This document shows, one piece after another, positions 3,003 to 23,658 of a stretch of DNA of 32,000 bases. This stretch comes from Patescibacteria group bacterium (GTDB lineage: Bacteria; Patescibacteriota; Minisyncoccia; UBA6257; HR35), in the NCBI GenBank assembly GCA_030549845.1, contig JAUQQN010000004.1, forward strand, positions 10,269-42,268. The letters run 5' to 3'. The position numbers and the translations under genes were made by a program. Every line of letters begins with the position of its first letter. The first letter of the stretch is position 1. Under the pieces are notes generated by a model. It did no database searches. It was not told the DNA's origin and was given only the letters and a program-made list of their open reading frames with translations.

Positions 3003-4847
3003 TTACTGAGGGCAAAGTTCAATACTATTAGGAACCGCTTCAGAAATAGAAGGTGATACGAAAGAAATAGACAATGACGGAGAAGCAATGGATAGATCTA
3101 TAGCAGAACTAGATAAAGATATTGATAGTTGACTAGGAAAATAAGAAGAGATAAGATTGCAATTACCGCAATTACCATTAGAATCTAATTTAATAATAAA
3201 AATGTCGCCATTTGTTCCATAACTATAAGTATAACCTGCAATTATATATCCGCCATCTGAAGTTTGATAAAGACCATTGTTATAAGTATTATCATTATTT
3301 GCTCCGCCAATTGTTTTTGCCCATGAAATATTTCCATTGTTGTCTAATTTAATAACAAGAATATCATAACCCCCCGCTCCATAACTAGTGGTTGCTGCAA
3401 GAATGATATAACCCCCATCTGATGTTTGCTGGATGAAATTACCATAATCATCATTTATTCCACCAATTGTTTTTGCCCATGAAATATTCCCTGAAGAATC
3501 TAGTTTGATAATTATAATATCACGATTACCAACCCCGTAGCTAGAGGTATATCCTAAAATGATGTATCCATTATCAAAAGTTTCGTGGATAGAAAAAGAG
3601 GTATCATCACCACTACCACCCATTGTTTTTGCCCAACTAATATCTCCACTTCCGTTAAGTTTAACAACTAAAATATCTCGATTATTTACTATATAAGTAT
3701 GCCCCGTAAGAATATATCCCCCATCTGAAGTTGGCTGTATTGAATATCCATAATCATTATTTGCTCCGCCAATTGTTTTTGCCCATGAAATATTTCCATT
3801 GTTGTCTAATTTAATAACAAGAATATCATAACCCCCTGCTCCATAACTAGCAGTATTTGCTATCAAAATGTATCCACCATCTGAAGTCTGTTTAATAAAA
3901 TTACCGTAATCGCTATTTGTACCACCAATTGCTTTAGCCCACGAAATATTTCCTATAGAGCTTAGCTTTACTATAAATATATCACGAACGCCTGCTCCAA
4001 AACTACGAGTGTATCCTACAGCAATATATCCACCATCTAATGTTTGCTGCCCTGAATAGAAGGAATCATCCATCCCCCCACCTATCGTTTTTGCCCAAGT
4101 AATATTTCCTGAGTAATCTAATTTGATAATAAAAGCATCCCGGCCTCCTGCCCCTTGACTTTGTGTATTGCCTGTAATAATATACCCACCATCAAATGTA
4201 GGTTGCGAAGACCAAGCTTCTTCATAGTATGTCCATCCTATTGCTTTTGCAAATAAATTGATATACAACGGAAGAGTTGGAATTGCAAGCTTTTTATTAC
4301 TTCCTACCTCATATGAATCAGGATCTGTACCTCCATCGTTTGCAGAAATATTTTGATTTGTTTCGAGCTTGGCTATGAATTTATAACCTTCTCCAACAAT
4401 AAGTGCATAGTAATATGGGGGTTTATTAATAGGATCTATAGGCAAAGAGATAAGATTAAAAAGAGAAAGTTGGTTAAAAGGTATAGGGATCCAGCCAGTA
4501 CCGTCTATGTTAGTAGGATTTGGAGAACATCTATAGACCCATCCCGGAGGTAACTGCGGCAATTTATCACTCCAATTCTCACAAGTAGAAGCACTATCTG
4601 GTAACGAAATGTATACTGTACCAGAAGAAATATAATTTAATTCTTTAAATTTAGGATCTTCTATTTTTAGTAATTTCAAGGTTTTTTCTAGGTTATCTAA
4701 ATGAGAAATTCTTAAAGTATCTCTTGCATTTGGAAACATTTGTGTTGATTTTGTTAGCGTTAGTACTAAAGTTAACATCCAAAGGATTATTATTAATCCT
4801 ATTATAAACTCTAGAAAAGTGAAAGCAAAGTGTTTTACAATCTGCAT
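3003..4847 (-). CDS. type IV prepilin-like N-terminus fused to a 7-bladed beta-propeller repeat domain (surface or pilus-associated protein)
   Basis: The start is trimmed to ATG 4847 (MQIVKHFAFTFLEFIIGLIIILW) because the track start at 4880 runs into tRNA-His. A FTFLE motif with Glu at +5 followed by a hydrophobic helix gives a class III signal. A Cys pair follows (TCENW...YRC). Seven repeats then follow, of the form SDGGYI..G.T.S.G.G..D...IKLD..GNISWAKT.GG. The tail is Ser/Leu/Ile-rich. Confidence 0.8.
   Translation of the reverse strand: MQIVKHFAFTFLEFIIGLIIILWMLTLVLTLTKSTQMFPNARDTLRISHLDNLEKTLKLLKIEDPKFKELNYISSGTVYISLPDSASTCENWSDKLPQLPPGWVYRCSPNPTNIDGTGWIPIPFNQLSLFNLISLPIDPINKPPYYYALIVGEGYKFIAKLETNQNISANDGGTDPDSYEVGSNKKLAIPTLPLYINLFAKAIGWTYYEEAWSSQPTFDGGYIITGNTQSQGAGGRDAFIIKLDYSGNITWAKTIGGGMDDSFYSGQQTLDGGYIAVGYTRSFGAGVRDIFIVKLSSIGNISWAKAIGGTNSDYGNFIKQTSDGGYILIANTASYGAGGYDILVIKLDNNGNISWAKTIGGANNDYGYSIQPTSDGGYILTGHTYIVNNRDILVVKLNGSGDISWAKTMGGSGDDTSFSIHETFDNGYIILGYTSSYGVGNRDIIIIKLDSSGNISWAKTIGGINDDYGNFIQQTSDGGYIILAATTSYGAGGYDILVIKLDNNGNISWAKTIGGANNDNTYNNGLYQTSDGGYIIAGYTYSYGTNGDIFIIKLDSNGNCGNCNLISSYFPSQLSISLSSSAIDLSIASPSLSISFVSPSISEAVPNSIELCPQ
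3291..3388 (-). repeat. 98-nt near-identical direct repeat, copy A (partner at 3753-3850)
   Basis: The sequence atcattatttgctccgccaattgtttttgcccatgaaatatttccattgttgtctaatttaataacaagaatatcataacccc[c/t]gctccataactag is shared. By my alignment there is 1 mismatch, and the offset is 462 nt. Confidence 0.9.
3753..3850 (-). repeat. 98-nt near-identical direct repeat, copy B (partner at 3291-3388)
   Basis: Same alignment as copy A. Both copies encode YGAGGYDILVIKLDNNGNISWAKTIGGANND. Confidence 0.9.
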
Positions 4848-15713: not shown

Positions 15714-15785
15714 CGGGGTGTAGCACAGTGGTAGTGCGCTGGCATGGGGGGCCAGAGGCCCCGGGTTCGATTCCCGGCACCCCGA
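15714..15785 (+). tRNA. tRNA-Pro (anticodon GGG)
   Basis: Acceptor CGGGGTG/CACCCCG with a C1-G72 pair, anticodon stem CTGGC/GCCAG, loop ATGGGGG, and T-arm CCGGG TTCGATT CCCGG. Confidence 0.85.
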
Positions 15786-15813
15786 ATAATCTGATCATAT
15801 TTTGATAAAGCCA

Positions 15814-18099
15814 CTATTTTACAACAAAGCTTTGGGTAAAATTTGGAAGAGGAGGCTTTTTTATTTTTTGCCATTTTTCATCAGTAAGCCGATCTCTCAT
15901 CGGATGTTTAAATTCATAATATGAGAAAATTGGGCCAGAGGTTAAATATAATTCACCGCCATCTTTTACCACTACTAATAAATTTAGAGGTTTCCCGATC
16001 GCTTCTTCCAGAACTTGAAATGTATTGCTATCTGTATGAACATCTGCGATGATTTCCATTTTTGTATCTGTTTCTGAAGCAATTTCTTTCATTTCTTTTA
16101 TAGAAAAACTAACCAAATTTTCAAGGATGTGACCTATATTTTTAATAAATTCGTAATCATCCTTTTCTAAATCCTTATTCGTTAATTCTTTTTCAGATAT
16201 TGTCTTTAGGGTCAAAAGAATTTCTTCCATTTTTGTAAGTTTGTATTTGTATTCAGAGCTTAACAAATTTCTCGATTCTAATCCTTCTCGCATGAATTTT
16301 GCTAAAGAAGCAAGCCGAGCGTATACTTCAGGATTAGGTTCTACATAGCCACGGTCTTTTACTGGAGGCCCTGGCTCGAATTCTATAGGCGAAAGAATTT
16401 CCCTAATAGTATAACTTTGTTTTGCATAAAGAATTGTATCATGTCGCAGTTCTGTCCAAGAACCTAAAAATGAATTTAAATCTTTATCCAACCAAGCAGC
16501 TTGTCGCATAAATATTGGATAACCTTTACCTTTCACTGTAAGTGTCGGCAAAAGTGAATACAACCAATTCCAGTATAAATTTTCCACCCATTTGTTTTGT
16601 GGAAGTGATGAAAATTCTTGTCTAAGTTTTTGAAACTGCTCGTTATATCCATAAAAAGCAGAATCCCCTTCTCTATCAAGAATTTCTTTTGCTCTTTTTG
16701 AACCTAAAACTGCAGCAACATCTAAGCCTCTAGGAAAAGCTCTAACGGTTTGAAGTCCGATTGTTTCTGCTGTAAATGGCTGTGGCTCAGTCCCAATGTA
16801 ATCTTTTACATTTGGAAAAACAAGTTGATGAAATATATAAGAATCTGGAACAAAACGTTGTCCCATAAAACGAAAACCTTTAGTTGCCTCAGTAGGATCT
16901 TCTGTTTTTAGAACAAATGAAGAGAAAATTTTAGGACCTAGTAATTTTTTAAGTTCGGCAATTACTTGATCAATTTTTCTATCGTCGGCAAGACTATTAA
17001 CAGATATGTTTTCTCCAAAAACTTTTTTCATTACATTAAAATAATCATAAACATTAAAATCATCTGTTTTACCTACAAAAAAACTAGTAACTTGGTAAAT
17101 TCTATCCCAAACCTTTAATGCATCTTCTTGATTAACTTTCGCCTGTTTAAGCATTAATGAAATCAATAAGGCTTGACGTGTTTCTTCTTGTGAAGTAATT
17201 CTAAACCTCATTCTCCCATACCACATCATTGTTTTAAAATACTTTTTGAAATCTTCATTTCGAGTATAATGCCCGCGTGGGATATATTGACTGTAATCTT
17301 CTATATAGCCAAAAATAGGAGAATATTGAAAGCCTTCATGTTTATCAATTAAACTTAACTCTTTCTCCACAATATTTTTAACATCAGCTGGAACTGAAGT
17401 TTCTGGTTCAAGTAACTTTGAAGCGACCGCAAAATAAGCGACATTTTTCCTAGCGGCAGATTTCAGCTTAGGATCAGTAATGCTATTATACTGATTTATA
17501 GCTGTTTGTAGTAATACTTTGTTTAAGTTTTTTAAATCAGGTATAAATTTATTTAACTCTATATTTCGCAAAGTGTAATCATAAAGAATATGGAAAGCAT
17601 GTAAAACAGAATCAATGGTAACAAAATTTGGTCGACCATTTTCGGTGTTGTCCTTATAAATAGAATAAATTTCATCATATTTAGTTGGTATTGCAACAAA
17701 ACCTTGTTTTATCAACTTTTGTTTAACTTTGTTGCTTAGATTAAATTTTTGCCTATTCTTAATTTTATTCCAATTTACTGGTAGGTTATAGGAGTCAGCA
17801 TTTGGAATTATGTCTACAGTATATGGTTTATATTCAGCAAATTCTGTTAAAATCGTAGATTTTATAGAAATCGGTTGTTCTGTCTCAATCAATTCAGCTG
17901 ATTGGTATAGCTCAGGTGATTGTTGGTTACTTTTGTTACGATAAAAGAAGGTAAGAATAGTTATGGTGATAACACATAAAATACTAGTAATAATCAAAAT
18001 TTTTTTCTTAGCTTTTAGCTTTGATATCACAGAGGAGTTTCGATAATTTTCTTGCAAAGGCTCGTTTGGTTTATGCGGATTAAAATTTTTATCATCCAT
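15814..18099 (-). CDS. large membrane-anchored extracytoplasmic protein, probably DUF3160 family
   Basis: 761 aa with one N-terminal TM helix (ILIITSILCVITITILTFF). The overall size and segments such as YSQYIPRGHYT recall DUF3160. The family call is from memory. Confidence 0.6.
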   Translation of the reverse strand: MDDKNFNPHKPNEPLQENYRNSSVISKLKAKKKILIITSILCVITITILTFFYRNKSNQQSPELYQSAELIETEQPISIKSTILTEFAEYKPYTVDIIPNADSYNLPVNWNKIKNRQKFNLSNKVKQKLIKQGFVAIPTKYDEIYSIYKDNTENGRPNFVTIDSVLHAFHILYDYTLRNIELNKFIPDLKNLNKVLLQTAINQYNSITDPKLKSAARKNVAYFAVASKLLEPETSVPADVKNIVEKELSLIDKHEGFQYSPIFGYIEDYSQYIPRGHYTRNEDFKKYFKTMMWYGRMRFRITSQEETRQALLISLMLKQAKVNQEDALKVWDRIYQVTSFFVGKTDDFNVYDYFNVMKKVFGENISVNSLADDRKIDQVIAELKKLLGPKIFSSFVLKTEDPTEATKGFRFMGQRFVPDSYIFHQLVFPNVKDYIGTEPQPFTAETIGLQTVRAFPRGLDVAAVLGSKRAKEILDREGDSAFYGYNEQFQKLRQEFSSLPQNKWVENLYWNWLYSLLPTLTVKGKGYPIFMRQAAWLDKDLNSFLGSWTELRHDTILYAKQSYTIREILSPIEFEPGPPVKDRGYVEPNPEVYARLASLAKFMREGLESRNLLSSEYKYKLTKMEEILLTLKTISEKELTNKDLEKDDYEFIKNIGHILENLVSFSIKEMKEIASETDTKMEIIADVHTDSNTFQVLEEAIGKPLNLLVVVKDGGELYLTSGPIFSYYEFKHPMRDRLTDEKWQKIKKPPLPNFTQSFVVK

Positions 18100-18116
18100 G
18101 TTTTCTTCTTATATGA

Positions 18117-19943
18117 TTAAATATGATCTCTATTAAAAACTTCTGAATTCAAAATTTCTTCAAATTTTTCAAAAGGCAAATCTCCCAAATCTCCTTCTTT
18201 ATGTTTTCTTACAGAAATTTTATTTTCAGATATTTCTTTATCGCCTATGATGATCATATAAGGTATTTTTTCTTTTTCTGCTTTTAGTATTCTCTTTGAT
18301 AATGTTTCATCTGGTTCCCAGATTTCAACCCTAAAATTGTCTTTCAACTTGTAAAGAATTTTTTTTGCATAATCCATGTGTTTATCATTAATCGGTAAAA
18401 TAACTATTTGTATAGGTGCTAACCATAAAGGAAAATCTCCGCCATAATTTTCAATTAACAAACCGAAAAATCTTTCAATTGATCCCAAAAGCGCTCTATG
18501 AATCATAAATGGTGTTTTTGCTTTTCCATCTTTATCAACATAAGTGATATCAAATCTTTTTGGTAAATTAAAATCTAATTGAATCGTTGAAATTTGCCAG
18601 GTTCTTCCTAATACATCTTTTACTTTTATGTCTATTTTGGGCCCATAAAAAGCTGCTTCACCTTTCATTATTTTATATTCCCAGCCAGTTTTTTCTATTG
18701 CTTTTTTTAACGCATTAATAGCAAATCTCCAATCTTTTTCTGATCCTAAATAATCTTTTTTCTTAGCAGGATTCCATATGCTTAGTTCTACAAAAAATTC
18801 TTTAAATCCAAATTTTTCTAGGACATATTTTACTAAATTAACACAATTTAAAATTTCTTCTTCTAATTGTTCTCTAGTGCATAAAATATGACCATCATCT
18901 TGAGTAAATCCCCTAACCCTTGTAAGCCCTGATAAAGTTCCTGATCTTTCATATCTATAAACTGTACCAAGTTCTGCATATCTTATTGGTAAATCGCGGT
19001 AGCTTTTAGGAGAGTTTTTATAAATCATTAAATGAAACGGGCAATTCATTGGTTTTAGATAGTATTTTTCATTTTCGATATCAATTGGAGAGTACATATT
19101 TTCTTTATAAAAACTTAAATGCCCTGATGTCTCAAATAAAGTTTCTTTTGCTATATGTGGAGTAAATACTAATTGATAACCATTATTTTTATAAGTTTCG
19201 ATAACAAAATCTTGGATTATTTGCCTAATTATCCCTCCTTTGGGAAGCCATAAGATTAAACCAGCACCAATTAATGGATTCGTAGTAAAAAGCCCTAATT
19301 CTTCACCTAGTTTTCTATGATCTCTTTTTTCAATTTCTTCTTGAAGCTTAAGATAGTTCTCTAATTCTTCTTTTGTTTTAAAAGCAATTCCATAAATTCT
19401 AGTAAGCATTGGATTATTCTCATTTCCTCTCCAATAAGCTCCTGCAATTTTTACTAATTTGAAGCCATCTAGGGGTATTTCTCCGCTTCTTTTAACATGG
19501 CCTCCTTCGCATAAATCAATAAAATCTCCTGACTTATAAATTGTTACTTTTTTTATCTTTTTAGGTTTTTTCTTTTTTGTTTTAATCTCTATTATTTCAT
19601 CATAATCTGTTGTTCCATATTTTTGAAGATCATTTAAAAGTTCAATCTTAAAAGGTTGTTTCAATTTTTTAAATAAATTTTTTGCTGATTTTAAAGAAAT
19701 TTCTTTTTTTTCAAATTTAATGTTTGCTTTAATCAATTCTTTGATACCATTCTCTAAATCCTGAAGAATATTCTCATCAATTTTTTTTGAAAATAAAATA
19801 TCATAATAAAAGCCATTTTCAATAACAGGGCCTACACCAAATTTTGCTTTTGGATCAATTTTAAGAGCAACTGTTGCTAAAAGATGAGCTAATGAATGCC
19901 TTATTTTGTATAAATCATCTAATTTCCTTGAAGATTTAACCAT
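18117..19943 (-). CDS. thrS: threonine--tRNA ligase lacking the N-terminal TGS domain
   Basis: It starts directly at the editing-domain HxxxH motif (RHSLAHLL), with CEGGHV further on. Class II motifs are present (YRYERSG, FTQDDGH, GPKID), as is the anticodon-binding domain. Length is 608 aa. Confidence 0.9.
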   Translation of the reverse strand: MVKSSRKLDDLYKIRHSLAHLLATVALKIDPKAKFGVGPVIENGFYYDILFSKKIDENILQDLENGIKELIKANIKFEKKEISLKSAKNLFKKLKQPFKIELLNDLQKYGTTDYDEIIEIKTKKKKPKKIKKVTIYKSGDFIDLCEGGHVKRSGEIPLDGFKLVKIAGAYWRGNENNPMLTRIYGIAFKTKEELENYLKLQEEIEKRDHRKLGEELGLFTTNPLIGAGLILWLPKGGIIRQIIQDFVIETYKNNGYQLVFTPHIAKETLFETSGHLSFYKENMYSPIDIENEKYYLKPMNCPFHLMIYKNSPKSYRDLPIRYAELGTVYRYERSGTLSGLTRVRGFTQDDGHILCTREQLEEEILNCVNLVKYVLEKFGFKEFFVELSIWNPAKKKDYLGSEKDWRFAINALKKAIEKTGWEYKIMKGEAAFYGPKIDIKVKDVLGRTWQISTIQLDFNLPKRFDITYVDKDGKAKTPFMIHRALLGSIERFFGLLIENYGGDFPLWLAPIQIVILPINDKHMDYAKKILYKLKDNFRVEIWEPDETLSKRILKAEKEKIPYMIIIGDKEISENKISVRKHKEGDLGDLPFEKFEEILNSEVFNRDHI

Positions 19944-20434
19944 TCTTTTAATTCTTTAATTTGGCTATCATTTAATATTTTATATTCTTCAATAAGATTT
20001 AAAATAATTTTATAATCATTTTTAATAAATTCAAAATTTATTTCATGAAACCTTCTTAATTTGTCTATTAATAAAAATATTTGTTCGCAAAATTCGAAAA
20101 GGTATTTTTGAGCTTTTTCTTTATTGTAAGCATTATTTAATTCTTCTCTTACTTCTAAAAGTACCTCTTTTAAGTTTTGAAGGTCTAATCTTCTTATAGG
20201 AACTTGATTTACAGCTTCATTGGTTTTTCTATATGTTATTAATTCAAAAATTTCTTTTATTTTCATCCCTTTTTCAGTTATTTTAAAAAATCTTAAGCAA
20301 TATCCAACTTCTAAATAATTTTCTTCTTGAATAGTTTTAACTTCTATTTTTAATGACAATCTTCTGTTATTTATCTTTAATTCAAAAGGCTCTACTGTAT
20401 CCAAAAATGGTTTAAATTCTGGATGTTTTCTCAT
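19919..20434 (-). CDS. hypothetical protein
   Basis: 171-aa ORF with an ATG start, overlapping the thrS start by 25 nt. I recognise no motif. Confidence 0.5.
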   Translation of the reverse strand: MRKHPEFKPFLDTVEPFELKINNRRLSLKIEVKTIQEENYLEVGYCLRFFKITEKGMKIKEIFELITYRKTNEAVNQVPIRRLDLQNLKEVLLEVREELNNAYNKEKAQKYLFEFCEQIFLLIDKLRRFHEINFEFIKNDYKIILNLIEEYKILNDSQIKELKEWLNLQGN

Positions 20435-20459
20435 AAAAAAATTTTAGCAAAATAAAATT

Positions 20460-20495
20460 GGCCGGGTGCAGCCCCCATCTCTCTTGCCCCCGGCC
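20460..20495 (-). terminator. GC-rich hairpin followed by a U-rich tract (minus strand), possible terminator or attenuator
   Basis: The stem GGCCGGG (20460-20466) pairs with CCCGGCC (20489-20495). On the minus strand it is followed by AAUUUUAUUUU and lies 25 nt before the ATG of the 171-aa ORF. Confidence 0.4.
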
Positions 20496-20505
20496 CACCA
20501 CTTTC

Positions 20506-20613
20506 TCATCTCTTCTTTCTTTGTTTTCTTTTGCGGGCGGTTGACTTCAGTCGCCCGCAATTTTGGCACCTACCATTTCGGTAGGTGCCTTTTTTACACC
20601 GCTTACACTTCAT
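20506..20613 (-). CDS. unannotated 35-aa zinc-ribbon-like polybasic microprotein (alternatively part of a structured RNA)
   Basis: My translation is MKCKRCKKGTYRNGRCQNCGRLKSTARKRKQRKKR, giving CxxC-x9-CxxC plus a basic tail. GGAAGGAGGTG lies at 20631-20621, with the AGGAGG core 9 nt from the ATG. The ORF is below the ORF-track size threshold. Confidence 0.5.
   Translation of the reverse strand: MKCKRCKKGTYRNGRCQNCGRLKSTARKRKQRKKR
20565..20595 (+). terminator. perfect 10-bp hairpin plus T6, a plus-strand intrinsic-terminator shape
   Basis: ggcacctacc (20565-74), atttc loop, ggtaggtgcc (20580-89), then tttttt (20590-95). It lies inside the minus-strand micro-ORF, so its role is ambiguous. Confidence 0.35.
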
Positions 20614-20647
20614 TTTATCCCACCTCCTTCCTCTAGAGTAACATTTA

Positions 20648-20677
20648 ATTATATAATTTTTCCCTTTTTTGTGTCAA
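20648..20677 (-). promoter_or_regulatory. consensus sigma70-type promoter (TTGACA, 18 nt, TATAAT) on the minus strand
   Basis: The reverse complement of 20672-20677 is TTGACA, and that of 20648-20653 is TATAAT. The -35 box overlaps the TGA stop (20674-20676) of the upstream membrane-protein gene. Confidence 0.55.
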
Positions 20678-21534
20678 GAGTTTTTTGGTATATTTTGAAG
20701 ATATTTTGTCAAAAGACCTAAAATAGGAAGATATGTTGTTATTATTCTGTAATATATTAAAGAGAACAAAAATAATGTTGGATTATAACCAAGATAATAA
20801 ACATAAAGCAAAGATAAGCCTTCACTCACTCCTGTACCATATAAAAATGGAAATATAGAAGATATTATTACCCAAATTAAATAGGCTATAAAAGAATCCA
20901 TGAGTTTAACCCCTGGTAAAAATATAACGTTACTTAAATAAAAAAGATAAAAACTTAAACTTTCTATTAAAAAGGTTATTAATAGTAATTCTAGAAATTT
21001 ATAAACTTCGATATTTCTAAAAAATTTTCTTTTTATGATAAATGAAAAAATCAATATTAATAAAAATAAAACTGATGGTAAAAATATTTTAAAAATCAAA
21101 AAAACTAGAGAAAAAAACAAAAATGAGCCTAAAAATACAAAATATGTATAAATTAAATAAGAAAGTGAGGCTCTTCTGCTTTCAGATTCTAGATTAATTA
21201 TAGGAGATATAGGGCCAAAAGGAGAGAAAAGTCTTTTTGTGTGAATTTTAAAATACAAGTATGAAGATTGAATTAAATTTTTTTCAAGATCCAAAATTTT
21301 AAAAATTTTGTACCACAATAAAATATGCAATAAAGTAATTGCTAAAAATATTAAAATTGAAGAAATAAGGTAAGTTGAATTAAATAAAAAATAATTTTTA
21401 AATGAAAATAGTTCAATTAAATATCTATCTTCTATTTCTTTCAACTTATAAATTAAAAAAATTACAAAAATAAAAACAAAGATATTTTCAATTAATAATA
21501 AAATAGTTAAAATACTATTTTTATTGATTTTCAT
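20674..21534 (-). CDS. polytopic membrane protein, flippase-like (UPF0104 / LPG-synthase TM-like) family
   Basis: 286 aa with about 8 TM helices. The C-terminal pattern PFLYGTGVSEGLSLLYVYYLGYNP...YYRIITTYLP resembles the P.G.G..E...G...R signature of UPF0104. Confidence 0.5.
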   Translation of the reverse strand: MKINKNSILTILLLIENIFVFIFVIFLIYKLKEIEDRYLIELFSFKNYFLFNSTYLISSILIFLAITLLHILLWYKIFKILDLEKNLIQSSYLYFKIHTKRLFSPFGPISPIINLESESRRASLSYLIYTYFVFLGSFLFFSLVFLIFKIFLPSVLFLLILIFSFIIKRKFFRNIEVYKFLELLLITFLIESLSFYLFYLSNVIFLPGVKLMDSFIAYLIWVIISSIFPFLYGTGVSEGLSLLYVYYLGYNPTLFLFSLIYYRIITTYLPILGLLTKYLQNIPKNS

Positions 21535-21538
21535 TTTA

Positions 21539-21856
21539 TTAGTCTTTTATTTGATAGGTTCGGGCAGCGAATATAAAATATTTTAACCAATTTTTTAATT
21601 TTTCTTCATCTTCTTTATTAGTGATCTCAATTGAGCTTAAAATTTCTTCATATATTGTTTTAATCTCTTCATTTTCAGAAGGCGTAGGGATATAAAGGCC
21701 TTTTATTTCAATTTCTTTTTTTCTTATTTTTTCAAAAAGCTCTAATAAGGCCTCTTTAAATTTTTCTAAATTTTTTATTGTACAACAATTTTTAGCTGAT
21801 TCTATTGCTTTATTAATAAATTCATCTTTTGTCAAAGGCTCTATTTTTTCTTTCAT
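21539..21856 (-). CDS. hypothetical protein
   Basis: 105-aa ORF, Glu/Lys-rich and helical-looking, divergent from lepA. No motif recognised. Confidence 0.45.
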   Translation of the reverse strand: MKEKIEPLTKDEFINKAIESAKNCCTIKNLEKFKEALLELFEKIRKKEIEIKGLYIPTPSENEEIKTIYEEILSSIEITNKEDEEKLKNWLKYFIFAARTYQIKD

Positions 21857-21876
21857 TTTAAAATAATATTATAACA

Positions 21877-23658
21877 ATGGAAGGATATTTAAACAAAATA
21901 AGAAATTTTGCAATTATAGCCCACATAGATCACGGAAAATCCACTCTAGCTGATAGATTTCTAGAAATTACAAATACTATTCCTAAGGAGAAATTGATCC
22001 CCCAATATTTAGATAGATTATCTTTAGAAAGAGAAAAGGGTATAACTATTAAAATGCAACCAGTAAGAATGTTATATAATGGCTATATTCTAAATTTGAT
22101 AGACACCCCAGGACATTCTGATTTTTCTTATGAGGTTTCAAGAGCTTTATATGCTGTTGAGGGAGCAATTCTTTTAATCGATGGTACACAGGGAATTCAA
22201 GCTCAAACTGTTTCAAACTTAAATATAGCTCAAGACCTTGGAATTAGAATAATTCCAGCTATTAACAAAATTGATTTGAACATAATAGAGATTGATAAAT
22301 TAGTAAATGACATCCAAAATCTTTTAAGAACTAAAGATATAAAAATTCATTTAATATCAGCAAAGCTTGGTACAGGAGTTAATGAACTTTTAGATACTAT
22401 CATAAAAGAAATTCCAAAACCAAAAATTTTGTCTGAAAAACCTATTGCTTTAATTTTTGACTCACACTTTGATAAACATAAAGGTGTTATTGCTCATATA
22501 AGAGTTTTTGGTGGTGAGTTTAAAAAAAATGAAAAATATTACTTAAAAGCCGTAGGTTGTCAATTCAAAGCCTTAGAAGTAGGATATTTTACGCCTGATT
22601 TAAAAGAAGCTGACGCCCTAAGAGCAGGTGAAATAGGTTATATTGCTACAGGAATAAAAGAACCAAATATCATAAAGATAGGAGATAGCATAACCAAAGA
22701 TATGAATCAAGAAGCTATTCCAGGTTATAAGGAACCTCAGCCTGTAATTTTTGCTTCGGTTTTCCCCTCAGAAGAGATTTCTTATGAAAAATTCAAAGAC
22801 AATGTTTTTAAATTACAATTAAATGACCCAGCAATCAAATTAGAAAATATAAATTCTCCTGTTTTTGGAAGAGGTTTTTTAATTGGCTGTTTAGGTTTAT
22901 TACATCTTGAAATCTTTCAAGAAAGACTTAAAAGAGAAATGGAAACAGAAGTTATCTTAACAATGCCGTCAATAAAATATAAAGTTATTTTAAAAAATGG
23001 AAAAGAAATTTATATACAAAATCCAAAGGATCTTCCTGATGCCTCACAAATTCAAGAAATTCAAGAGCCTTGGGTTAAGGTTTTTATTTACTCTCCATTT
23101 ACATATATTGAAGATATCTATGAATTATTAAAAACTAAAAGAGGGATGATTTGTGGACAAAAAATTTATGAAGGATTTTTAGAAATTGAAGGAGAACTTC
23201 CTCTAGATGAATTAATTACAGGATTTTTTGACAAATTAAAATCGGTAACTTCTGGATATGCTACATTAAATTATGAATTTTTAGAATATAGAAGGGGAGA
23301 TCTTGTTAAGTTAGATATCTTGATAGCAGAAGAGATCAATCCTTCGCTTTCAAGAATAGTTGTAAAAAATAAGGCAGAAGAAATAGGAAGAAAAATTTTA
23401 ATTGAGCTAAAAAATTCTTTACCAAGAGAACAATTTCCAATTAAATTACAAGCTGCAATTGGGGGGAAAATAATCGCAAGAGAAACAATTCCTGCTTTAA
23501 AAGCTGATGTTGCTGGTTGGCTTTATGGAGGAGATATAACTCGAAAAATTAAATTATGGCAAAAGCAAAAAAGGGGTAAAAAGAAATTACAAAAATTGGG
23601 CAAAGGAAAAGTACGAGTTCCTAATGAAGTTTTAATAAAAATTTTTAGAATCTATTAA
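21877..23658 (+). CDS. lepA: elongation factor 4 (LepA)
   Basis: GTPase motifs AHIDHGKST, DTPGH and NKID are present. The LepA-specific C-terminal part includes GYATLNYEF. Confidence 0.9.
   Translation: MEGYLNKIRNFAIIAHIDHGKSTLADRFLEITNTIPKEKLIPQYLDRLSLEREKGITIKMQPVRMLYNGYILNLIDTPGHSDFSYEVSRALYAVEGAILLIDGTQGIQAQTVSNLNIAQDLGIRIIPAINKIDLNIIEIDKLVNDIQNLLRTKDIKIHLISAKLGTGVNELLDTIIKEIPKPKILSEKPIALIFDSHFDKHKGVIAHIRVFGGEFKKNEKYYLKAVGCQFKALEVGYFTPDLKEADALRAGEIGYIATGIKEPNIIKIGDSITKDMNQEAIPGYKEPQPVIFASVFPSEEISYEKFKDNVFKLQLNDPAIKLENINSPVFGRGFLIGCLGLLHLEIFQERLKREMETEVILTMPSIKYKVILKNGKEIYIQNPKDLPDASQIQEIQEPWVKVFIYSPFTYIEDIYELLKTKRGMICGQKIYEGFLEIEGELPLDELITGFFDKLKSVTSGYATLNYEFLEYRRGDLVKLDILIAEEINPSLSRIVVKNKAEEIGRKILIELKNSLPREQFPIKLQAAIGGKIIARETIPALKADVAGWLYGGDITRKIKLWQKQKRGKKKLQKLGKGKVRVPNEVLIKIFRIY

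Follow-up and report, generated by a model that had tools for sequence, protein, structure and literature searches.

Several kinds of small bacterial genes and leaders invite comparison with the locus described in this work. In the dual-function RNAs SgrS/SgrT, RNAIII/hld and SR1/SR1P, the structured or base-pairing part lies mostly outside the open reading frame (ORF), and the leader-peptide attenuators and control elements known in connection with thrS include the E. coli thr operon leader, the E. coli thrS operator, and the Firmicute thrS T-box. With regard to translation initiation, ribosomes of Bacteroidia sequester their anti-Shine-Dalgarno (anti-SD) sequence, and rpsU, coding for bS21, is almost the only gene with an extended Shine-Dalgarno (SD) sequence, which mediates autoregulation via anti-SD occlusion (PMC7797042, PMC9976891, PMC13000453). 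The rpsU SD of Bacteroidota lies below -13 kcal/mol (PMC9976891), and this circuit is the sole worked-out precedent for an extended-SD exception. Here, we focus on a 32,000-nucleotide stretch from a Patescibacteria group bacterium (contig JAUQQN010000004.1, positions 10,269 to 42,268; hereafter the window) and, within it, on a short element upstream of thrS on the minus strand (20449-20677). This element is probably an autonomous, monocistronic mini-gene coding for a strongly basic, 35-residue zinc-knuckle protein with four Cys, a shortened version of a small-protein gene that Paceibacteria-like Patescibacteria carry at a fixed site between a membrane-protein gene and thrS. The gene itself is unannotated and lineage-specific, and it represents neither a new RNA class nor a demonstrated regulator of thrS. 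What is unusual is the combination of an extended SD, where the lineage is otherwise SD-less, with an ORF made of covarying hairpins and with hypervariability at the strain level.

Read on the minus strand, the mini-gene opens with a -35 hexamer, TTGACA (20677-20672), which overlaps the stop-codon region of the upstream gene for a 286-residue membrane protein and is separated by an 18-nt spacer from the -10 hexamer TATAAT (20653-20648). This sigma-70 promoter scores 12/12; no other such match lies within 18000-23000, and the window as a whole has just one further perfect promoter. The 5' leader with the inferred, unmapped transcription start occupies 20642-20634, and its ACTCTA motif (20639-20634) lies 8 nt past the -10 box; the succession of -10, 8 nt, AC(T/A)CTA, A-rich stretch and GGAGG occurs once in the window, compared with 0.01 expected. 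The extended SD GGAAGGAGGTG (20631-20621), with an AGGAGG core separated by 9 nt from the ATG at 20613, contains AAGGAGGTG, 9 nt that are complementary to the canonical 3' tail of 16S rRNA; the leader stretch UUACUCU is able to pair with the SD, and this pairing is present in the predicted fold of the minus strand. The 35-codon ORF MKCKRCKKGTYRNGRCQNCGRLKSTARKRKQRKKR (20613-20506, with TGA at 20508-20506) codes for a CxxC-x9-CxxC peptide rich in Lys and Arg (17 of 35 residues). Two mRNA hairpins lie inside it. Hairpin 1, GGCACCUACC/GGUAGGUGCC (20589-20565), has 10 bp and a GAAAU loop and codes for GTYRNGRC, while hairpin 2, GCGGGCG/CGCCCGC (20560-20531, 7-bp core at 20558-20533), codes for CGRLKSTAR and is lengthened by the fold to 9 bp plus two inner pairs; it forms a perfect 11-bp stem in strains L003 and L009 (L numbers designate individual loci). 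The GGCCGGG...CCCGGCC stem (20495-20460) of an intrinsic terminator (20495-20449) starts 10 nt past the stop codon and is followed by AAUUUUAUUUU (20459-20449). A terminator scan matched the inner stem 20473-20460 plus AATTTTATTT, and the full stem has 7+3 bp in the fold. This element has the features of a Rho-independent terminator, since it closes the transcription unit with a GC-rich stem and, directly after it, a U-tract.

Promoter, SD, ORF, hairpins and terminator stem had been proposed in an earlier reading of the letters alone (the sequence-only reading), and they were found at the same positions when the strand was read over 20300-20800 with the motifs located programmatically, the hand counts being likewise reproduced. 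Each of these elements exceeds chance by far. The G+C content is 45.4% over 20506-20613 and 71.7% over 20460-20505, compared with 28.2% for the whole window, where the only equally GC-rich islands are five tRNA genes. In a fairly confident AF2 single-sequence model of the peptide (pLDDT 79.7), the two knuckles flank a beta-hairpin, and the basic C-terminus forms a helix. Two CxxC knuckles flanking a predicted beta-hairpin define the peptide as a candidate zinc knuckle, with putative Zn(II) binding. Foldseek returned 0 matches in the PDB for this model, which is too short; the AF2 model of the related L011 protein (about 76 residues) was of low confidence (pLDDT 53) and was left out of the fold search.

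Strain variants of the mini-gene were obtained from nine Logan contigs belonging to two sample series, which were reached via members of the downstream 171-residue orphan ORF. Alignment and translation revealed five distinct versions of the ORF, including the 35-residue form of the window. The version of strain L009 differs by T10A, Q17W and N18R, strains L003/L004 and L005 code for 43 residues with a 24-nt in-frame insertion, and the partial version of strain L001 has the tail KKLKKIKKK before the stop. The ATG, SD, frame, four Cys and basic tail are retained in all five, and the -10 box (TAAAAT or TATAAT) is conserved across the strain variants and more distant relatives. Synonymous swaps among strains affect three Cys codons (TGT/TGC) as well as AAG/AAA, CAA/CAG, CGA/CGG and CTG/TTG. 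Between strains, the flanking genes are 97-100% identical, compared with 76-89% for the mini-ORF and 84-87% for its leader; among co-occurring strains, the mini-gene diverges at about ten times the rate of its flanks. This tenfold local divergence suggests diversifying selection or hairpin-templated mutagenesis. In addition, six independent assemblies (Logan/JGI) break inside the cassette (L001, L002, L006, L007, L008 and, in a relative, L022), which is consistent with strain heterogeneity at that spot. Several multi-nucleotide changes result in more perfect palindromes (e.g., GCGGGCGACTG to GCGGGCGGTTG) and are reminiscent of quasi-palindrome template-switch mutation.

The same module is found in relatives. 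LepA, encoded 1.2 kb from the cassette, places the lineage in Patescibacteria near Paceibacter/Minisyncoccia, with 65% to 74% LepA identity in L010-L013. Each of these four relatives has, on the strand opposite to lepA, a GC island 1.3-1.6 kb upstream of that gene. The shared order is lepA followed, on the opposite strand, by an ORF of about 110 residues, the membrane protein of about 286 residues, the SD-led small ORF, an optional ORF of 147-171 residues, and thrS. Using the membrane protein (about 40% identity in relatives) as an anchor in metagenomes gave 17 further loci, and orthologs of this protein stand directly upstream of the cassette in L010, L011, L013 and L020-L035. Synteny searches traced the module to about 25 related loci, most of which code for a zinc ribbon of 70-77 residues with a polybasic run and a Y[IV]NGG.[LM]K.RR end. 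The whole module of promoter, leader, SD, small ORF and terminator is seen in L010-L013 and L020-L035, with 6-9 nt between SD and start codon, and nearly all loci display TTGACA overlapping the end of the membrane-protein gene, then the -10 box, a short leader, GGAGG and the small ORF. TTGACA is retained in nine of the ten related cassettes of alignment A6, L030 carrying CTTGAA, and the leader geometry with AC(T/A)CTA is common to L010/L028, L029, L011/L031 and L012 (ACTCTA itself in L010/L028, L029 and L011/L031). In every relative, the small ORF is succeeded by a GC hairpin and a U-tract, although the stem sequences differ (GGGCGGUGGU/ACCACCGCCC, GGCCGUGGU/ACCACGGCC, GGCCCAC/GUGGGCC). Two observations support the autonomy of the mini-gene: all loci possess a strong terminator, and the ORF downstream varies or is missing.

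Ten of the syntenic ORFs constitute a clear family of 70-77 residues (alignment A5). Judged from these alignments, an uncurated, lineage-specific family exists; the sequence-only reading, which could place the peptide in no family, was right as far as curated libraries are concerned. The family proteins begin with the ribbon W.E..C..CG.EFS.P ... [IV].C..C, followed by a linker that varies, a polybasic run and a run of Gly, and end with the C-terminal motif Y[IV]NGG.[LM]K.RR. The window peptide (MKCKRC...NGRCQNCG) is devoid of the W, E and FS.P of the family. MAFFT aligns its second knuckle, NGRCQNCG, with the first knuckle of the family, EGRCENCG, and by eye KKG-TYRNGR and CGRLKSTAR match KKGGGYVNGG and NGGYLKARR of the family. 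The C-terminal part in question, KKGTYRNGR...RLKSTAR, is coded by hairpins 1 and 2 and is extended by an additional basic tail. At the RNA level, hairpin 2 (GCGGGCGG-UUGAAA-..CCGCCCGC) resembles the C-terminal hairpin of the family (AACGGCGGG-UAUUUGAAAG-CCCGCCGUU, also given with UUGAAA between the arms). A roughly calibrated covariance model (R1), made from the C-terminal hairpin and terminator of the family with the window clade excluded, has its best window match at 20441-20588 (24.4 bits, borderline E-value of 0.017) and matches L009 and L003 at the same place with E-values of 0.1-0.16. The window peptide is thus likely a shortened, derived member of the family.

Across the ten family members, 17 residues are invariant, including the four Cys, and 11 of these 17 show synonymous codon variation, such as TGC/TGT at three Cys, GGG/GGA/GGT, TCT/TCG/TCA, CCA/CCG/CCT, TAT/TAC and AAA/AAG. 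At the same time, each family ORF is built of perfect GC-rich hairpins, which code for CGTEFSVP, GHFIEC, PPRLTYKPRR and VNGGYLKARR (the last with the stop codon) and precede the terminator. In the window, the minus strand of 20440-20650 folds at -66.9 kcal/mol (z -5.0; 0 of 200 shuffles as good), and the ORF alone reaches a z of -6.65. Dinucleotide shuffling of the window, L003, L009, L010 and L011 gave z values of -4.4 to -7.6, and permutation of synonymous codons with the protein held fixed still gave -3.7 to -4.6 for the same five loci; the folding excess is weak in L013. RNAalifold on alignment A6 returned 43 consensus pairs, 15 of them with compensatory double changes. The strongest covariation concerns a helix that pairs the purine-rich codons of the poly-Lys/Arg run with an upstream pyrimidine-rich stretch, which codes for PPRL, SPSP, LSLPS, FLPLS or NFF and is conserved by composition only (Pro/Ser/Leu/Phe); RNA pairing appears to dictate the amino acids of the linker there. 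The RNAalifold pair table has about 39 G-U/U-G cells as opposed to about 9 A-C/C-A cells, and since G-U pairs work only in the sense RNA, this wobble excess favours the minus strand. Among strains, every change in the stem of hairpin 1 affects one side only and turns the pair into a G-U wobble, which again holds in the sense RNA alone; over both ORF hairpins together, pairing stays at 96.8%.

The alignment comparison that the sequence-only reading had recommended thus yielded synonymous variation that keeps the four Cys and in-frame indels, together with compensatory changes in the stems. Comparison of the aligned loci shows the ORF to be under protein-coding constraint, and shows the sense-strand RNA to be independently selected for stable GC-rich hairpins predicted inside it. 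Four to five perfect hairpins laid on a conserved frame of 35-77 codons represent an unusually clean natural overlap of selection on protein and on RNA structure. The zinc-ribbon microprotein suggested at the outset is borne out to the extent that the ORF, its start, SD and four Cys are kept in the five strain variants and that small zinc-ribbon and/or polybasic ORFs occur in about 25 loci.

On these grounds, we propose that the near-consensus sigma-70-type promoter would drive a transcript of about 190 nt, on which SD, ORF and terminator follow one another, and that the mini-gene would be highly expressed. Because essentially no other gene of these genomes has an SD, the extended SD could provide this mRNA with a privileged or separately regulated route of initiation. 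The role of the hairpins may be to make the short transcript more stable, to throttle its translation, or both. The protein would bind nucleic acid (RNA, ribosome or DNA) by means of the polybasic segment, and the zinc knuckle would serve as a module for folding or recognition.

In protein databases, the gene is invisible. Searches of Pfam, NCBIfam and PDB sequences with the 35-residue peptide gave nothing significant; its best score against curated zinc-ribbon profiles was 17.1 bits for a cut-off of 33.2, and the family members reached at most 22.5 bits for cut-offs of 27-34. The family displays sub-threshold, generic profile similarity to LysW, DPH3/CSL, Zn_ribbon_8/4/5 and eS27 (the last with E-values of 0.8-2). 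An exact-peptide lookup found no record of the 35-residue sequence, and a degenerate-pattern scan of species-representative genomes, derived from the strain-variant alignment, gave 112 pattern matches, of which 0 were confirmed. The contigs bearing the ORF (e.g., L003) have no gene call at its position, so the peptide is missing from protein databases because the ORF was never called as a gene, which is an annotation artefact rather than evidence against coding. The gene escapes standard annotation, and protein collections of 1.8 and 5.8 billion entries do not contain it, although its DNA lies on contigs of the gene-position index covering the same assemblies. The mini-gene is nevertheless among the best-signalled genes of these genomes, and its case shows that annotation systematically misses small, fast-evolving genes of the Candidate Phyla Radiation (CPR).

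Several points weigh against the interpretation as a protein-coding mini-gene of a conserved family. An exhaustive phmmer search with the peptide against 1.84 billion representatives gave 0 matches at E<=0.001, and the 43-residue strain variant and the L011 protein (about 78 residues) found only themselves in 5.8 billion proteins. The high nonsynonymous fraction and strain hypervariability of the ORF imply weak constraint on most residues. The relatives are, moreover, modular: L027 codes for 34 residues comprising only the basic segment and YINGGLMK, L012 carries a 54-residue Arg/Lys-rich ORF without a ribbon, and L013 and L035 have the ribbon without the basic tail. The zinc ribbon being dispensable in the former two and the basic tail in the latter two, a function common to all is called into question. 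The homology between the 35-residue and the 70-77-residue proteins rests on position, the shared regulatory module, and ambiguous short motifs. Finally, the proposed role of the SD rests on an assumed canonical anti-SD, given that an anti-SD motif was detected in only 48% of the 16S genes of Parcubacteria (PMC9297842), about half of them lacking a detectable motif.

With respect to known micro-proteins, the closest are the one-domain zinc-finger proteins, such as the C(P)XCG proteins of Haloferax volcanii (PMC6562870), LysW and DPH3/CSL, with which the family shares a size of 35-77 residues and two CxxC knuckles around a beta-hairpin. However, the profile matches are sub-threshold, the polybasic run and Y[IV]NGG.[LM]K.RR have no counterpart in them, and the carrier tail of LysW is acidic whereas the tail of the mini-gene protein is basic. 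Small ribosomal proteins (bL32, bL36, eS27, and the bS22/bTHX type) are likewise tiny and very basic, some with four Cys, but no significant match was found among ribosomal-protein families or PDB ribosome chains, the basic segment is C-terminal in the mini-gene protein, and strain hypervariability is atypical of them. The CxxC-x9-CxxCG spacing presumably resembles that of bL32-type ribbons, which we take as a lead only.

The SD deserves particular attention. The sequence-only reading had singled it out as the only strong SD of the window, which is indeed the case: none of the 28 window ORFs of at least 100 residues shows an SD match of as little as 4 nt, and the 32 kb contain a single GGAGGTG. 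Duplex energies were computed with an assumed canonical 16S tail, GAUCACCUCCUUUCU, from which the anti-SD of the lineage may differ; under this assumption, the cassettes range from -14.8 to -21.1 kcal/mol (-20.7 in the window), compared with a mean of -1.36 kcal/mol (sd 3.06) for 95 other ORFs. Just three of these 95 reach -8 kcal/mol or lower, namely, the syntenic basic ORF of L033 and ORFs at L010 +697 and L035 +4262. A census of GGAGG followed by a start codon in 156 kb from 22 loci gave the same picture, with the cassette as practically the sole extended SD. In all loci, the match reaches past the GGAGG core to GGAGGUG(A/G)U(C) with correct spacing, which argues indirectly for an existing anti-SD; if the 16S tail lacked GAUCACCUCCUUUCU, GGAGGUGGU would be an RNA or protein-binding motif instead of an SD.

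As to the two other SD-led ORFs, the L010 ORF (697-1140, plus strand) codes for a Cys-containing protein of 147 residues, has an SD of -14.2 kcal/mol with the same AACTCTAAAAGGAGG leader and a TATAAT box, and the L035 ORF (4262-4591, plus strand) codes for a 109-residue zinc-ribbon protein with an SD of -16.9 kcal/mol. Sequence features of this kind suggest that SD-poor Paceibacteria possess a class of Cys-rich genes led by an SD. That tiny ORFs, Cys-rich or basic, keep an extended SD where the other genes of the lineage have none raises the question of whether, and to what end, these reduced ribosomes still employ their anti-SD. Many long ORFs of the window carry a -10-like box (TAAAAT/TATAAT) about 6-13 nt from the ATG, e.g., at 20441-20449 and upstream of lepA at 21877, a placement suggesting that mRNAs of this organism have, by default, no leader or a very short one. 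The family ORFs (e.g., L025 3559-3585) contain an internal copy of the SD string (AAAAAAGGAGGTGGTTATG, coding for KKGGGY), followed by an out-of-frame ATG, and the Arg-rich 54-residue ORF of L012 (5256-5440, minus strand) is purine-rich with at least four GGAGG motifs; ribosome pausing and anti-SD titration are possibilities for such internal strings.

These SD features recall the rpsU gene of Flavobacteriia and other Bacteroidota, where likewise a single gene for a small basic protein possesses an SD extended past the GGAGG core in an SD-poor lineage. By analogy, the mini-gene could code for an unrecognised micro-protein binding the ribosome or the 16S 3' tail, an independently arisen analogue of the Bacteroidia bS21 circuit, although we consider this unlikely. 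In such a scheme, an anti-SD-linked, autoregulated protein, small and basic, would bind near the 16S 3' tail, the anti-SD would be kept but normally unused, and ribosomes without the protein would prefer its mRNA and thereby set the protein level. The predicted energies of the cassettes, -15 to -21 kcal/mol, go beyond the -13 of rpsU (PMC9976891), and the polybasic product is of small size and ends in a conserved motif that contains Tyr. In addition, Parcubacteria frequently lack bS21 (PMC9297842), and the extent of the match argues for a canonical anti-SD. The hairpin-packed mRNA could then act as a second regulatory layer, for instance, as a mimic of the rRNA site of the protein. However, the protein is a zinc knuckle without sequence relation to bS21: Ribosomal_S21 (PF01165) matched neither the peptide (E<=1) nor the ten family members (E<=0.1). 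The packing of the mRNA with hairpins is a difference from rpsU, strain hypervariability and modularity are unusual for ribosomal proteins, the link to the ribosome and the anti-SD are assumed only, and at least two other SD-led ORFs exist in the relatives, so that the SD is not unique to one gene.

Apart from the mini-gene interpretation that we favour, the position upstream of thrS raises another alternative, in which the element would be a cis-leader or attenuator of the 171-residue ORF and thrS, with translation of the mini-ORF deciding between termination and read-through; we judge this quite improbable. As in thrS and leader-peptide control, a small ORF and then a terminator lie upstream of thrS, always in the loci compared and directly so in L011 and L012. 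The stop codon stands 10 nt before the 5' arm of the terminator, so that a terminating ribosome would cover this arm, and no strong consensus promoter was seen between the terminator and the next ATG. However, fold inspection revealed no antiterminator pairing of at least 6 bp, each hairpin being a self-contained perfect palindrome. Thr codons (two of 35) are neither enriched nor conserved (T10A in L009) and form no run, no T-box or other leader family of Rfam was matched in the window and related loci, and the Thr anticodon-loop motif CUNGUAA was absent from the hairpin loops examined. A leader peptide would not be expected to conserve its Cys and its C-terminal residues under synonymous codon change, -10-like boxes stand just before the downstream ATG (TGCTAAAAT in the window, TATAAT in relatives), the stop of the small ORF and thrS are 319 nt apart in L011, and the downstream ORF is variable or absent among relatives. 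The attenuator scheme is therefore weak, for want of alternative pairing and of enriched or conserved Thr codons, with a conserved peptide and a variable downstream ORF.

A structured non-coding RNA on either strand, with the ORF incidental, is very improbable. It would account for a GC island matched only by tRNA genes at 28% G+C, for folding z values of -5.0 on the minus and -7.7 on the plus strand, for hairpins conserved with covariation, and for an ORF that gene callers never call. It is opposed by the ORF, start codon, SD spacing and Cys kept over deep divergence with synonymous third-position variation, by in-frame indels, and by the lack of a plus-strand promoter. At gathering threshold, only tRNAs pass among Rfam matches in the window and 14 related loci, so the Rfam check recommended earlier produced no confident match to a known RNA family; a permissive threshold gave generic two-hairpin noise, with a best local score of 26 bits for a threshold of 52 bits (NmsRb), and ARAGORN found no tmRNA in the window. 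The terminator shape noticed on the plus strand, a 10-bp stem followed by T6, is present in the window but is not conserved: T6 corresponds to the Lys-Lys codons AAAAAA and reads CGAACT in strain L003. A plus-strand terminator or sRNA was ruled out, since T6 is unconserved and the wobbles favour the minus strand.

The pure sRNA or cis-leader put forward by the sequence-only reading is thus not retained as the main explanation, given the strong coding signatures, the absence of an antiterminator, the unenriched Thr codons, and the strong terminator. Of its proposals, the dual-function one fits the evidence best, if taken narrowly to mean that a translated mRNA is selected for hairpins; a trans-acting RNA role is no part of that support. 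The transcript would resemble the known dual-function RNAs in being short and autonomous, in having a promoter and a terminator of its own, and in combining a small ORF with conserved structure, but its hairpins lie within the ORF and shape it, and neither a seed for target pairing nor a function in trans is apparent.

That the locus is a palindromic element of foreign or mobile nature (MITE/REP-like or phage-derived) with a chance ORF is scarcely credible, for although the perfect GC-rich palindromes in an AT-rich genome, the atypical Arg codons, the assembly breaks within the cassette and the hotspot of strain divergence would fit it, the cassette is present as a single copy without a second copy or related repeat in the 32-kb window, its syntenic position is fixed across genera, scans of viral contigs with the family alignment, of PHROGs and of PADLOC were all negative, and terminal repeats or target duplications are lacking. 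The foreign derivation considered by the sequence-only reading is likewise unsupported in view of the same syntenic position in relatives with 65-74% LepA and about 40% membrane-protein identity and of the absence of PHROGs, PADLOC or viral-contig matches. Four of the eight Arg codons of the mini-ORF are indeed CGN, while the claim that the long genes use AGA almost exclusively was slightly overstated (AGA 255, AGG 66 and CGN 51, i.e., 14% CGN). Selection for structure explains these CGN codons better than foreign origin, because they are located in the hairpin stems.

With regard to the neighbouring genes, all on the minus strand, the 286-residue polytopic membrane protein (20674-21534) used as the synteny anchor has a weak LPG_synthase_TM match. 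The 171-residue orphan ORF (19919-20434, ATG at 20434) forms one 90% cluster and is preceded by a possible extended -10 element, TGCTAAAAT (20441-20449), 6 nt before its ATG. thrS (18117-19943, ATG at 19943) overlaps the 3' end of this ORF by 25 nt (19919-19943), which implies co-transcription and possibly translational coupling. Most relatives have an ORF of 147-148 residues at the position of the 171-residue ORF, which is absent in L011; homology between the 171-residue ORF and the 148-residue ORF of relatives was rejected, as the similarity is not significant.

In some more distant relatives (L013 2590-2880, minus strand; L033 3320-3625; L034 3300-3625; L035 3500-3820), an extra conserved stretch of about 170 nt precedes the SD. 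It consists of a CCGGTTAGG...CCTAACCGG hairpin with a T-run, followed by three segments complementary to one another, CCAGCGC / GGGCTGG / CCAGCCC, the last abutting the SD; a switch by alternative pairing is possible, and the stretch has no Rfam match. Further downstream of the mini-gene, a gene for a 761-residue DUF3160 protein beside tRNA-Pro (15714-18099) is present in the window, L001 and L002 and absent in strains L003-L008 (L003 6306-6803), where only the tRNA separates thrS from a gene for 304 residues, indicating a presence/absence polymorphism at the strain level. Elsewhere in the window, six tandem copies of a unit of about 156 nt, 66-100% identical, occupy positions 3176-4205; they lie inside a 614-residue minus-strand ORF (3003-4847), which thus codes for a repeat-domain protein.

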